64,000 nucleotides of DNA from Promethearchaeia archaeon (GTDB taxonomy: Archaea > Asgardarchaeota > Lokiarchaeia > Sigyniarchaeales > SOKP01), in contig JAHQWG010000048.1 of the NCBI GenBank assembly GCA_029856045.1, positions 31,298 to 95,297 of the forward strand, written 5' to 3'. The position numbers and the translations under genes were made by a program. This document shows, piece by piece, positions 1-32,988 of the stretch. The notes under the pieces were generated by a model that saw nothing but the letters and a program-made list of their open reading frames with translations, ran no database searches and had not been told where the DNA came from. Within the stretch, counting starts at the first letter, position 1. Every line of letters starts with the position of its first letter.

Positions 1-1445
1 AGGATTTAGCTTTAATGGGTATAGGAAAATTAATTTTAGTTGATATGGATAAAATTGAAACCTCAAATCTCTCAAGACAAATGTTATTTCATGCAGGAGA
101 TGAGGGGAGAACAAAAGTTGAGGTTGCTGCAGAGCGTTTAAAATTGATGGCTCCGTTTCTCGAAGTTGAGTATTATTTTGATAAATTACAAAATCTTCCA
201 ATGAAGGTGTATGAAGAATCGGATGTTATTATTGCTGCATTAGATAACGTTAGGGCAAGAATGGATTTAAACAAGATTGCTTTAAGATTAAAAAAACCAA
301 TGGTGGAGTCTGGTACGGTAGGATTTGAAGGTCATGTTCAAAACATTATCCCAAAAGGCTCAAATATAAAATTTCATAAGAGAGAAAAAGTTATAGATGA
401 AATAGTGCAAGAAAAATTATGGAATTTATCAGAAGAAGAATATACTGAATATTTTGCTGCTCAAGAAAGTATAGAAAAGCTTGAGGAGCGAATAGTTCTA
501 TTAAAATCTCAATTTATGGAGCCTGTTGTTGAAAAAGTACGAAAACAAGTTGAAAATGAGTTTGATGAAAAATATTCTGAAGATTATCTTGATCAAACAG
601 CTTGTTATAGGTGCCTAGTTCCTATTCCACCACCTGATGATAAATTAATTGCAGCATGCACATTAAAGGGTATTCCGAGAAATAGAAATCATTGTGTTTT
701 AAAAGCAGAGTTAAATTTTGAAAAGAAACATGGACGGATGCCAGATTTGGATAATGATGAGGATATATACAAATTAATGGAATTATCTCAAGAGGAATTA
801 AAATTATTACGAGAACGAGTTTTTAAGGAAAACGTCTCTGATGAGCAGTTATCAACATTATCAGAAGAAGAAATTCGAGAGTGGAAAATCAATATTCAAG
901 ATACATTCGGTCAAGATTATGTATTTGAAGATATGGAAAATATTTTAGGAAATAAAATCGCTGCCGTTCAGACAGTTAGTTCAATTATCGCAAGTATTCA
1001 GTCCCAAGAGGCATTAAAATTAATATTTAGAGCAAAGGGAAGAGATATTGGGCCCCCCATGGATCCTCCGTATGTTAATTATAGCGGAATTTATGGAATA
1101 TTCGAACAAGTCCCAGTGTTTAAGAGAAAAGATTGCATTGATTGTGGGGATATTGAAGGAGAGGAAAATGTTAGTATTGTGGTTCCATTTAATTCAAAGG
1201 TTAAAGATATTTTTAATGCACTAGATGTTTCTGGTTATAAATTCGATACCGAAAAGTGGATGATCACAAATTCAATGAATAAGGAGATTCTTTGGCACCC
1301 CTCAATTCCCACATTTAAAGATCCTGAAGCTCTATTACAAAGCTTAAAAATAACGAGTAATGACGTTGTAACACTCACACCTTTAAGTAAAGATGTAAGT
1401 AAATTAGAAATAAAGAAATATAACGTAATCGTTTCCTATTTATAA
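1..1445 (+). CDS. Ubiquitin-activating enzyme E1-like (ThiF/UBA family, Uba2/Uba3-like); 5'-truncated by window edge
   Basis: The frame is open to the window start (DLALMGIGK). It has the ThiF motif D.DKIETSNLSRQ, ALDNVRAR, two CxxC zinc motifs (CYRC, CIDC), a catalytic-Cys segment ACTLKGIPRNRNHC and a C-terminal ubiquitin-fold-like domain. Confidence 0.9.
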   Translation, partial: DLALMGIGKLILVDMDKIETSNLSRQMLFHAGDEGRTKVEVAAERLKLMAPFLEVEYYFDKLQNLPMKVYEESDVIIAALDNVRARMDLNKIALRLKKPMVESGTVGFEGHVQNIIPKGSNIKFHKREKVIDEIVQEKLWNLSEEEYTEYFAAQESIEKLEERIVLLKSQFMEPVVEKVRKQVENEFDEKYSEDYLDQTACYRCLVPIPPPDDKLIAACTLKGIPRNRNHCVLKAELNFEKKHGRMPDLDNDEDIYKLMELSQEELKLLRERVFKENVSDEQLSTLSEEEIREWKINIQDTFGQDYVFEDMENILGNKIAAVQTVSSIIASIQSQEALKLIFRAKGRDIGPPMDPPYVNYSGIYGIFEQVPVFKRKDCIDCGDIEGEENVSIVVPFNSKVKDIFNALDVSGYKFDTEKWMITNSMNKEILWHPSIPTFKDPEALLQSLKITSNDVVTLTPLSKDVSKLEIKKYNVIVSYL

Positions 1446-2194: not shown

Positions 2195-2704
2195 CTAATC
2201 CATTGCGTATTTTTTCGTCCAGTTCTCTGCTTTCTTATCAAATTTCGATTTTTGTTTAAAATATTGCTCTCCTGCTTCATGATTTAAAGGATCGCCGGGA
2301 TTAAAAAATGGTGGTTCCACATGCATCATTCCCTTCAATGCTTCGACAATATTTGTTAATGTTTTAGAAGGAGTCCACCCCGAAGCCCCAGTAGAGGCAT
2401 CAACCTTACCGACTAGATCGGGATTAATAAGATCAAGACAAATATTCAATTTTCCTGGTGGAATTGAAGAGTCGATATTAGGATGCCACATTAAAGTATG
2501 AGCATATACATATGGAGGTGCAAAAGGATAGTTCTCGGGCATTTTTATCTCGAATAAAAATTTACCTCCTGAATACGGAATTCCTGGCTTTCCTATTATT
2601 GAAAGCCTAAGGTGGTCTATTGATCTTCCCCAAGGTTCGATAATAACGAATTGATTATCTTTAAATGCCTCAAGCGCCTCTGCATAATCAGTTTCTTCTC
2701 TAAT
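2195..2704 (-). CDS. Ubiquitin-conjugating enzyme E2 (UBC fold), probable ATT start at 2704
   Basis: YPFAPP, HPNI, catalytic ICLDLI, WTPS, DPLN. The frame stays open 54 codons upstream of the track ATG (2542) and encodes the conserved core (IIGKPGIPYSGGKFLFEIK). An in-frame TAA follows an AGGTG RBS and there is no NTG start. Confidence 0.9.
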   Translation of the reverse strand: MREETDYAEALEAFKDNQFVIIEPWGRSIDHLRLSIIGKPGIPYSGGKFLFEIKMPENYPFAPPYVYAHTLMWHPNIDSSIPPGKLNICLDLINPDLVGKVDASTGASGWTPSKTLTNIVEALKGMMHVEPPFFNPGDPLNHEAGEQYFKQKSKFDKKAENWTKKYAMD

Positions 2705-2849
2705 TTTTTACACCTAATAAGTTTAATTGTAATCTCAATTTAAAATTAAATTAAAAATAATTATGTTAAGTAATTTTATAATATTAGAATATAGTTAAAA
2801 ATGTATTTAATATATAAACATGCTAATTTTTTTGCAAAATTTTCTAAAT

Positions 2850-4249
2850 TCGGACCCTTACGCGAGTTAAATTGTCATTATTCTTTATAGAATAATAATT
2901 GTGAATCTAACTCAAAAAATTCGAATATTTCCCTCAAAGAATCAAAAACTGATTCTGTGGGATTTGTCGGAAAAATGTCGATTAATATATAATTTTGCGT
3001 TAGCTGAAAGAATAGAAAATTGGAATAAAAACAAATATAAGCCAAAAGACGACAAAAAATATATATCTTATTTAGAGCAACAAAATAAATTAACTTTACT
3101 TAAAAAGAAATATCCTGAATATAAATGGGTTTATTCTAAAGTTTTACAAATGATATTGAAAAGACTCAACTCTGATTATAAATCGTTTTTTACGAAATGG
3201 ATAAATGGAGATAAACAAGCTCGACCACCTAAATTTAAATCAAAAAAAAGATTTACAACAATCTGTTATAATCAGAGTGGTTTCAAATTAGAAAAGAAAG
3301 TGATACAATTTTCGCATAAACACCCTTCAAAAATTCCATTAATATTTTCTCTTAAATATCCTTATTGTGCTGTTGAAATTGTTAAACAGGTGGAAATTTT
3401 TAAAGATTTCCAAAATCGATGGTTTATTTCTATTACATATGAAGTTCAAGCACTAAAATACAAAGATAACGGGCTATATCAAGCAATTGATTTAGGAGTT
3501 TCAAATATTGTATCTGCGGTGAATTTGCACTCTAAATTTATTCAAATTAAAAATAAAAGAGCAGATCTCTATTGGAAAAAGAAAATAGAAAGCATTCAAT
3601 CAAGGCGAGACCACTGTAAAAAATATAGTAAAAAGTGGAGAAAATATCATTACAAATTCAGGAAGATGCATCAAAAGTGTGCTTATCAAATGCGTGATTT
3701 TCAACATAAAATTTCAAAACATATTGTGACACATACCAAAGCAAATACAATAATTGTCGGAGACCTAAATGTGAAAGAGATGGCTAAAAAGAAAAAATCT
3801 ATGGGAAATGCTCAAAAAAATAAAGCTAACAAAACTTTAAACTATTCTGTTAACAATACGGGATCGTTGGGTCGTTTTGTCGAATTCTTAATTTACAAGG
3901 CGAGACTTGTAGGGAAAAGAGTTATAAGAATTGACGAATCGTATACTACTCAACGATGTTCAATTTGTGGAAAGCTTAAAAAAAGAAATCTTTCCGAAAG
4001 AATTATTCAATGCGATTGTGGAAATTATCTTGATCGTGATCTTAATTCTGTGATCAACATTATGATTAAATTTTTGAAACATAAGCATTGTTACGTATTC
4101 CTATCGCATCAACCCTCCTTGAACGAGGAATCCTTTCTACAAAAAAAGGATTTGCTACGATACACAGCCCCATCCGTAGTAAAAGTGATGGCGGACTCGT
4201 AGTGATACTAAAAAATTAGAAATATTTACTAATTTTTCAGTAAGTTCAA
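2850..4249 (+). mobile_element. IS200/IS605-family, tnpB-only (IS1341-like) element; left boundary approximate
   Basis: tnpB ORF with no tnpA. Subterminal hairpin at 4207-4241 (ACTAAAAAATTAG/CTAATTTTTCAGT) followed by TTCAA, a typical right end. A hairpin ATTATTCT-TTAT-AGAATAAT lies just before the start. Confidence 0.65.
2901..4202 (+). CDS. tnpB: RNA-guided endonuclease TnpB
   Basis: HTH_OrfB N-terminus (KIRIFP...CRLIYNFAL), RuvC-I AIDLG, RuvC-II region IIVGDL...IDESYTT, zinc finger CSICG...CDCG, RuvC-III DRDLN. Confidence 0.95.
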   Translation: MNLTQKIRIFPSKNQKLILWDLSEKCRLIYNFALAERIENWNKNKYKPKDDKKYISYLEQQNKLTLLKKKYPEYKWVYSKVLQMILKRLNSDYKSFFTKWINGDKQARPPKFKSKKRFTTICYNQSGFKLEKKVIQFSHKHPSKIPLIFSLKYPYCAVEIVKQVEIFKDFQNRWFISITYEVQALKYKDNGLYQAIDLGVSNIVSAVNLHSKFIQIKNKRADLYWKKKIESIQSRRDHCKKYSKKWRKYHYKFRKMHQKCAYQMRDFQHKISKHIVTHTKANTIIVGDLNVKEMAKKKKSMGNAQKNKANKTLNYSVNNTGSLGRFVEFLIYKARLVGKRVIRIDESYTTQRCSICGKLKKRNLSERIIQCDCGNYLDRDLNSVINIMIKFLKHKHCYVFLSHQPSLNEESFLQKKDLLRYTAPSVVKVMADS

Positions 4250-32293: not shown

Positions 32294-32557
32294 GTGATAA
32301 AAATTAATCTTGAATCTACTGTAAGTGATAAAGGATTAACCACAATACCAAAGGAGATCCGAAAAAAACTCAATATTAAAAAGGGAGATAAATTATATTG
32401 GATTTTTAAAGAACAAGAAAGAACTGAATTAATTGTTATTAAAAAACCACTTAAATTTCTAAAAGGAAGATATGCTCAAAAGGATCTAACTTATGAGAAA
32501 CTAGAACACAAAGCTGATGAACTAATTGAAAAAAAGGTGGAAAATAAATCCCGCTAA
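32294..32557 (+). CDS. AbrB/MazE/SpoVT-family antitoxin (VapB-like)
   Basis: STVSDKGLTTIPKEIRKKLNIKKGDKL. The track GTG lies inside the GGTGA RBS, so the start may be the ATT at 32303. Confidence 0.9.
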   Translation: MIKINLESTVSDKGLTTIPKEIRKKLNIKKGDKLYWIFKEQERTELIVIKKPLKFLKGRYAQKDLTYEKLEHKADELIEKKVENKSR

Positions 32558-32988
32558 TCGAATTAGATTTAATGATTGGATTAGTTTCTAAAACTGATAG
32601 ATTTCATGAACTTTCAATAAAGATTTTTGATAAGATTAAAAAAAATTACATTAAAAATGTGTATATTCCATCTAGCGCATATTTAGAATATGAATTACTG
32701 CTAAAAAGCCGAAATATAGATGAATTGGAAATAATAAGAGATATTGTTCATTTCAAGAATATTAAAAATATAAAAGAAATTCCAATTGATTCCTCAATAA
32801 TAATACTTGCATCTCAATTAAGAGATGTGTATAATTTAACTTATTTTGATTCATTACATTGCGGAAGCGCCATACATAAAGATGGAAGCATTATCAGTTC
32901 TGATAAAGATTTTAAAAAAATTTCTAATTTAGTAGTTATTGAACCTGAAAGTTTAATAAATGGGGACGATGGGATTTATTCAAAATAG
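32548..32988 (+). CDS. vapC: PIN-domain (VapC) toxin; probable ATC start at 32548
   Basis: First PIN strand PLIELD lies upstream of the track ATG, then YLEY, LTYFDSLH and SSDKDF. Confidence 0.88.
   Translation: MPLIELDLMIGLVSKTDRFHELSIKIFDKIKKNYIKNVYIPSSAYLEYELLLKSRNIDELEIIRDIVHFKNIKNIKEIPIDSSIIILASQLRDVYNLTYFDSLHCGSAIHKDGSIISSDKDFKKISNLVVIEPESLINGDDGIYSK

Follow-up and report, generated by a model that had tools for sequence, protein, structure and literature searches.

Mitochondria initiate translation at AUN codons (NCBI tables 2 and 5), and ATT, ATC, and ATA are rare starts in tables 4 and 11. In E. coli, near-cognate starts still use Met-tRNAi, and the few bacterial cases known rely on an SD anchor and on pairing of Met-tRNAi with the first two bases of the codon. 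A handful of bacterial genes, two confirmed in E. coli (infC and pcnB, AUU) and four in S. aureus (infC, AUA; cvfC1, AUU; ccpN and citZ, AUA), carry a near-cognate AUH codon behind an above-average Shine-Dalgarno (SD) sequence at normal spacing, without a canonical alternative and with the codon conserved among relatives. Work in E. coli counts AUU, AUA, and AUC among the near-cognates of AUG and puts AUU/AUA-type starts at 0.1-3% of the efficiency of AUG (bioRxiv 10.1101/063800), and AUU and AUA starts in S. aureus have ∼10% (PMC13009471); in both species these codons need an extended SD. AUN initiation has also been described in mammalian mitochondria (PMC11775629).

In archaea, the initiation factor aIF1 has been reported to discriminate against non-canonical starts, and the aEF1A gene of Pyrococcus abyssi provides an example of a natural strong SD, GGUG-N6-AUG (PMC6237735). 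A 2020 review stated that SD sequences seem not to be prevalent in the annotated Prometheoarchaeum genome (PMC7531240). A full-text search of open-access literature and bioRxiv returned nothing on non-canonical starts in Asgard archaea or Lokiarchaeota. AUU-type starts as such are known, and what would be new in the case described here is their pervasive and archaeal use.

The gene in question encodes a ubiquitin-conjugating (E2, UBC) enzyme and lies on the minus strand of a 64,000-nucleotide stretch of DNA, hereafter the window (G000:C47:31298-95297), from a genome of 3.34 Mb and 30% GC. Protein matches of the window are to Loki-type Asgard archaea, labeled 'Promethearchaeota' or 'Lokiarchaeota'. 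The minus strand of the E2 region reads ...TTATTAGGTGTAAAAAATTAGAGAAGAAACTGATTAT..., and the frame runs TAG (2716-2714), GTG (2713-2711), TAA (2710-2708), AAA (2707-2705), ATT (2704-2702), AGA GAA GAA ACT GAT TAT, in agreement with every checked detail of the AGGTG-TAA-AAA-ATT-AGA-GAA reading in a preliminary description of this DNA. From the ATT the frame stays open to a TAG at 2197-2195, a coding sequence of 169 codons plus stop (2195..2704, -) that is also supported by a Pfam domain match, indel-free orthologs of 169 amino acids, and a confident structural model. The only nearby canonical start, the GTG at 2713-2711, is directly followed by TAA and is thereby ruled out; this in-frame GTG-TAA (2708..2713, -) consists of the GTG of the SD and an immediate stop. 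As previously claimed, there is no ATG, GTG, or TTG between the TAA and an internal methionine, the earliest being the ATG of codon 55 (Met55, 2540..2542, -), from which an open reading frame of 115 amino acids extends (2195..2542). From base composition, 55 stop-free codons are estimated to arise by chance in ∼1% of cases in non-coding DNA of 30% GC.

The 16S rRNA of this genome ends in ...GGATCACCTCCT, which makes the full SD AGGAGGTGATCC. The AGGTG at 2715-2711 (-) is a 5-nt match to this SD, complementary to the 16S 3′ end and invariant in the genus, and 6 nt separate it from the ATT. Among 774 genes of the genome with unambiguous ATG starts, G is enriched at positions -14 to -8, and the spacer behind GGTG has a mode of 7-8 and a range of 4-12. 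The E2 spacer is below the mode, a point against the ATT start, but within the range; the aligned spacer is 6 nt in most E2 loci across genera, and the natural strong SD of P. abyssi has this spacing as well. A possible TATA box, ATTATAAAA, lies at 2775..2783 (-) inside an upstream block conserved among close relatives, and it would mean a 5′ leader of ∼45 nt for the E2 transcript. The leader had no Rfam match at E ≤ 1 and no significant RNA fold (z = -0.64).

Read from the ATT, the product appears to be a normal, functional-looking UBC enzyme. Pfam UQ_con (PF00179) matches residues 23-163 of the 169, covering profile positions 19-139 of 140, with E = 7e-25 and a score of 87.6 bits against a curated cut-off of 27, and 277 E2 sequences in the PDB match the protein at E ≤ 0.001. 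As in other eukaryotic-type UBC/E2 proteins of Asgard archaea, for which the nearest structures are yeast Ubc1 and UbcH5/UBE2D, the UBC fold, HPN motif, and catalytic cysteine are retained. The HPN motif (residues 74-76, 2477-2485, -) and the catalytic Cys89 within NICLDL (2438..2440, -) are well conserved in a 43-sequence alignment, with H74, N76, and C89 invariant and P75 nearly so. The alignment with Ubc1 (PDB 1fxt) begins at residue 27 of the query and residue 29 of Ubc1, and the protein differs from Ubc1 in a segment of ∼13 extra residues after the catalytic cysteine. An AlphaFold model built on the 43 sequences (mean pLDDT 93.8) shows the α/β UBC fold with an N-terminal helix and four-stranded sheet, comprising helix 1 at residues 2-13 and strands at 20-25, 28-37, 48-54, and 65-68, followed by the C-terminal helices. 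Met55 falls just past strand 3. In the model, a product begun there would lack helix 1 and three of the four strands, and since these elements lie upstream of Met55, the 115-residue fragment cannot fold as an E2. The earlier view that the first 54 codons encode an indispensable part of the UBC core is borne out by the model and by the UQ_con match from residue 23. Five genomes of the window's genus (g1) were searched for additional E2 homologs; this E2 was the sole homolog found in G000, G008, G019, and G027, and an additional match of 40% identity was present in G034, which is 69% complete.

Orthologous loci place the start at the same codon. Public E2 ortholog proteins are mostly 169 amino acids long and begin MREETDY, and when the start region was read in E2 DNA from 30 genomes (13 genera, all of one family with the window's), the codon directly before R-E-E-T-D-Y was ATG in 10 loci, GTG in two, and TTG in four. 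Within the window's genus, this position (2702..2704, -) is ATT in ∼17 assemblies. The sequence AGGTG-TAAAAA-ATT is identical in all four species genomes (G000, G008, G027, and G019) and recurs in L083-L094, ∼12 more independent NCBI and Logan assemblies of different samples. The public 90%-identity cluster of the 115-amino-acid product has 21 members, and 12 of 13 further contigs from it read AAGGTG-TAAAAA-ATT. SD, spacer, and ATT are thus invariant in the genus while the flanking DNA varies. No ATG was found at this codon in the four species genomes or the ∼12 further assemblies, so the comparison of orthologs suggested earlier as a check turned up no ATG in close relatives; the variants seen were TTT and a TAA-to-GGA change, never ATG. 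The latter belongs to one allele (L082) that reads GTG GGA AAA ATT and is called as MGKIREE.... The unrelated genus g3 (G047) independently carries GGTGA-CAAACG-ATT, with an in-frame stop and no in-frame canonical start. Genera g11 and g7 have ATC or ATT at the E2 start and an in-frame GTG within the SD as a possible start, and by their sequences these loci do not force an ATT or ATC start. The SD match is 5-7 nt in ATT and ATC loci compared with 3-4 nt in ATG loci, a difference that is only suggestive because the loci are related. Together with the selection on the upstream codons described below, these observations favor the original claim of an apparent ATT start.

The gene is 169 codons long and indel-free in 33 of 33 loci or alleles that gave a readable gene. 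Nei-Gojobori comparisons of the window with three other ATT-bearing species gave dN/dS of 0.14-0.15 at dS ∼0.7 for codons 2-54 and 0.02-0.05 for codons 55-169; judged by these ratios, purifying selection acts on the 53 codons that follow the ATT. A sister lineage (L003, L004, and L005; Logan SRR28246151, SRR25383458, and SRR22580806) reads AGGTG-TAAAAA-TTT-AGA at the start. It is separated from the window by a dS of 0.17, and its gene is otherwise intact: no decay was found, with one private change at conserved columns, and the N-terminal dN/dS of 0.34 comes from only 12 substitutions. An out-of-frame ATT, with TAG after it, remains one base upstream in this allele. Either the ATT is dispensable for E2 or the TTT allele is a recent null; if translation does start at the ATT, the TTT allele would be a recent null or a strong hypomorph.

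Starts of this kind are widespread in the genome. The genome has 2539 stop-to-stop frames of 150 codons or more, and in 161 of them the first ATG, GTG, or TTG is preceded by 20 or more codons of coding-like usage. Where GGTG stands at the head of one of these 161 frames, an isoleucine codon (ATT 14, ATA 10, and ATC 2) follows in frame after 5-9 nt, with a spacer of mostly 7, in 26 of 35 cases, representing 24 genes, compared with two of 49 and one of 47 in the other two phases. As background, 10.8% of all in-frame codons, and 8.3% of those at internal GGTG+7 sites, specify isoleucine, which gives the 26 of 35 a binomial p of ∼2e-18. Across all coding-frame heads, the codon at GGTG+7 is ATA in 13, ATT in 10, ATG in 10, and TTG in nine, and CTG and ACG are rare among non-canonical starts both in this tally and at the V-ATPase D loci discussed below. 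A Pfam scan of ten ATT-, ATA-, or ATC-start genes, each read from its proposed start, found domains that match from profile position 1-4 in all ten; the matches begin 4-69 residues after the proposed start and ahead of the first canonical start, itself 21-99 codons in. These genes encode an SDR, an XPD-like helicase, aldehyde:ferredoxin oxidoreductase (AOR), 2-oxoacid:ferredoxin oxidoreductase (POR), a glycyl-radical enzyme, V-ATPase D, EtfA, an ERCC4 nuclease, an AAA ATPase, and an acyl-CoA ligase. When any 4-nt match was accepted as an SD, the count was 100 of 528 in frame, with 40 of 599 and 53 of 509 in the out-of-frame phases; taken as a lower bound, this suggests 35-60 forced non-canonical starts, or 1-2% of genes. 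This definition is noisy, and the GGTG-based counts (at least 24 genes) are therefore quoted as the firm lower bound.

The same anomaly extends across the family in a housekeeping gene. At 30 V-ATPase D loci in 13 genera, the start codon is ATT in 17, ATA in five, ATC in two, ATG in four, ACG in one, and TTA in one; ATT, ATA, or ATC stands behind GGTG in 24 of the 30, representing most of the 13 genera, and the ACG is confined to one genus. GGTG precedes nearly all of these starts, and in many loci a stop codon separates the SD from the start. Further V-ATPase D loci gave the same picture. Three sister-family genomes have ATG. Because housekeeping genes such as this one are affected, the genes concerned cannot all be pseudogenes. 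The preliminary description had presented the ATT start as a feature of a eukaryotic-signature gene; the start itself is upheld, but its peculiarity to such a gene is not, and on the genomic and family-wide pattern the ATT of E2 is best described as one instance of a lineage habit and not as an oddity of E2.

An SD of the form GGTG placed 6 nt before a start brings its own GTG into frame, and very often this GTG is followed at once by TAA or TGA, as in E2 throughout the genus and in V-ATPase D at 11 of 30 family loci. A GTG-stop inside the SD may guard against N-terminally extended products, although the loci compared are related.

Taken together, these data make it likely that the gene is intact and that its translation begins at the AUU at 2704-2702 by SD-placed initiation with the ordinary initiator tRNA, as many genes of the family would be. 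The E2 mRNA would have a leader whose AGGUG pairs with the 3′ end of 16S rRNA, and this pairing would bring the AUU that lies 6 nt farther on into the P site. There, the ordinary initiator tRNA (anticodon CAU) could pair with the first two bases of AUU, AUA, or AUC, and the product would have 169 residues, the first probably methionine. ATT, ATA, and ATC would replace ATG behind a good SD at tight spacing both in this archaeon and in its family, and such starts are probably weaker than AUG and may keep E2 levels low. AT mutation pressure would account for ATA and ATT exceeding CTG and ACG. The start arrangement, its conservation, the selection on the upstream codons, and the pattern across genome and family are observed, whereas reliance on Met-tRNAi, what the first residue is, how efficient ATT starts are, and whether they have a regulatory role are inferences. 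The initiator tRNA gene is standard, with A1:U72, a GGG/CCC anticodon stem, anticodon CAT, and a 24-nt intron. An unusual initiator tRNA was considered and rejected after an Rfam tRNA search and inspection yielded this normal initiator with anticodon CAT. The gene (G000:C27:220560-220656, -) has its intron after position 37/38 and was missed by aragorn, which reported no tRNA-Met and only 17-25 tRNAs in the whole genome; tRNA-Met escaped detection because these genes contain introns, and most tRNA genes in the genome probably carry them.

The simplest competing explanation is an assembly or base-calling error at a true ATG, as one G-to-T error would explain a single genome and the start codon adjoins an A6 homopolymer. 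Such an error would have to recur in four species genomes and ∼12 independent assemblies of different samples and sources, where the only variants are TTT and TAA-to-GGA and never ATG, and dozens of other genes in the genome have the same pattern. Conservation of the start region, dN/dS, and the intact alleles exclude a miscalled base, and the same evidence makes it very unlikely that E2 is a pseudogene with a lost start or that the 115-residue Met55 product alone is made. The latter reading draws on gene callers that give 115 amino acids, on the TTT lineage, which shows that the start-codon position can mutate, and on the higher dN/dS of the N-terminal part (0.15) relative to the rest (0.02-0.05). 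The preliminary description had itself named an N-terminus at 2542 as an alternative, against which stand the 53 upstream codons, on which purifying selection acts in species none of which has a canonical start and which form helix 1 and three of the four strands that a Met55 product would be without. Neither stops nor indels occur in any of ∼20 alleles, SD, spacer, and ATT are invariant while the flanks vary, and the housekeeping V-ATPase D gene is affected likewise across the family.

Initiation at the ATT by another route, for example with an isoleucine tRNA or modified initiator that would leave isoleucine at the N-terminus, is about as improbable as a pseudogene. The observation that ATT, ATA, and ATC, all isoleucine codons, account for nearly all non-canonical starts, with CTG and ACG rare, fits such a route, but a 30% GC genome alone would favor ATA and ATT over CTG and ACG, one genus has ACG where V-ATPase D begins, nothing about the initiator tRNA gene looks unusual, and AUU, AUA, and AUC are regarded as near-cognates of AUG in E. 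coli (bioRxiv 10.1101/063800). Less probable still is recoding, either by initiation at the GTG at 2713 with read-through of the TAA or by an upstream frame joined to that of E2 through frameshifting or slippage on A6. An in-frame GTG-TAA does lie directly upstream, the A6 run is present, and the L082 allele with GGA for TAA is called as MGKIREE...; yet most long frames (1051 of 1376) end in TAA, the main stop codon of the genome, the GTG at 2713 has no SD ahead of it, no Rfam match or significant RNA structure (z = -0.6) was detected, and orthologs start exactly at the ATT position. Frameshifting or transcriptional slippage on A6 was rejected because the other two upstream frames are closed within ∼12 codons and have no conserved start, and the TTG in one of them is TAG in relatives. 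Removal of the 5′ end of E2 by an IS insertion was also rejected: ∼200 bp upstream are conserved, orthologs start at the same codon, and the TnpB gene at 2901-4202 is absent from relatives, with a GIY-YIG gene there in L003.

Compared with the described systems, the proposed SD-dependent AUU initiation at E2 resembles that of the bacterial genes, which share its near-cognate AUH codon behind an above-average SD, normal spacing, absence of a canonical alternative, and conservation of the codon, and by analogy the reduced initiation efficiency of those starts would be expected for E2. Unlike the handful of bacterial cases, at least 24 forced GGTG cases, probably 35-60, occur here, housekeeping genes included, and the phenomenon is family-wide (V-ATPase D, 13 genera). 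The archaeal host also has eukaryotic-type initiation factors (aIF1, aIF1A, and aIF2), as opposed to bacterial IF3. Autoregulation of the infC type is not implied, as aIF1 of this genome has an in-frame GTG. The aIF1 (SUI1) gene (G000:C27:190727-191116; L081 1384-1773, +) has no ATG near its N-terminus, its in-frame GTG reads MYRTIPNDQNICPKC..., and an ATA lies four codons beyond; a forced non-canonical start was rejected for it in G000 because of the available GTG. Mitochondria likewise use AUU, AUA, and AUC as initiators in an AT-rich genome, but their mRNAs are mostly leaderless and are read with a modified tRNA-Met, whereas the starts described here would be SD-dependent and the initiator tRNA gene is standard, tRNA modifications being invisible in DNA.

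These starts have consequences for annotation. The claim that standard gene callers truncate E2 is confirmed by public records, where NCBI, JGI, ENA, and Logan carry the window's 115-amino-acid call on 11 contigs. Because this fragment cannot fold as an E2, surveys of the Asgard ubiquitin system would score the genus as having a broken E2 or none. It is somewhat likely that start stringency is relaxed in the whole Loki-type family, with AUU, AUA, and AUC as regular initiators behind a strong SD in a few percent of genes, essential ones such as V-ATPase D included. If true, Asgard proteomes, including those used in surveys of eukaryotic-signature proteins, are systematically truncated at the N-terminus, and gene finders limited to ATG, GTG, and TTG mis-annotate a few percent of genes in such genomes. 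The pattern would also bear on start-codon choice by a eukaryotic-type initiation apparatus and would offer a case in which the offsetting of weak start codons by a stronger SD can be tested.

Several other genes of the window were noted. A PIN-domain toxin gene (32548-32988, +) overlaps the end of an AbrB/MazE-type antitoxin gene (32294-32557), and its start is probably the ATC at 32548, with AGGTGG 7 nt ahead and an in-frame TAA as the preceding codon. The Pfam PIN match of this toxin starts at residue 12, corresponding to profile position 11, and the first ATG is codon 9; the alignment thus puts D7, the first acidic residue, ahead of that ATG. Divergent from E2 is a gene for a TnpB protein of 433 amino acids (IS605 OrfB/Cas12f-like, 2901-4202, +), which is present in some relatives (L083 and L084) and absent from others; in L003, the variable region upstream of E2 contains a GIY-YIG gene and not TnpB. 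On the other side, a ThiF-type E1 gene (3..1445, +) lies 750 bp from E2, a gene neighborhood in which it may be the cognate E1 for thioester transfer to the E2. The order of E2, a HAD-family hydrolase gene (1462-2085, -), and the convergent E1 gene (3-1445, +) is kept in all close relatives examined, and the HAD gene may belong functionally with the E2/E1 pair.
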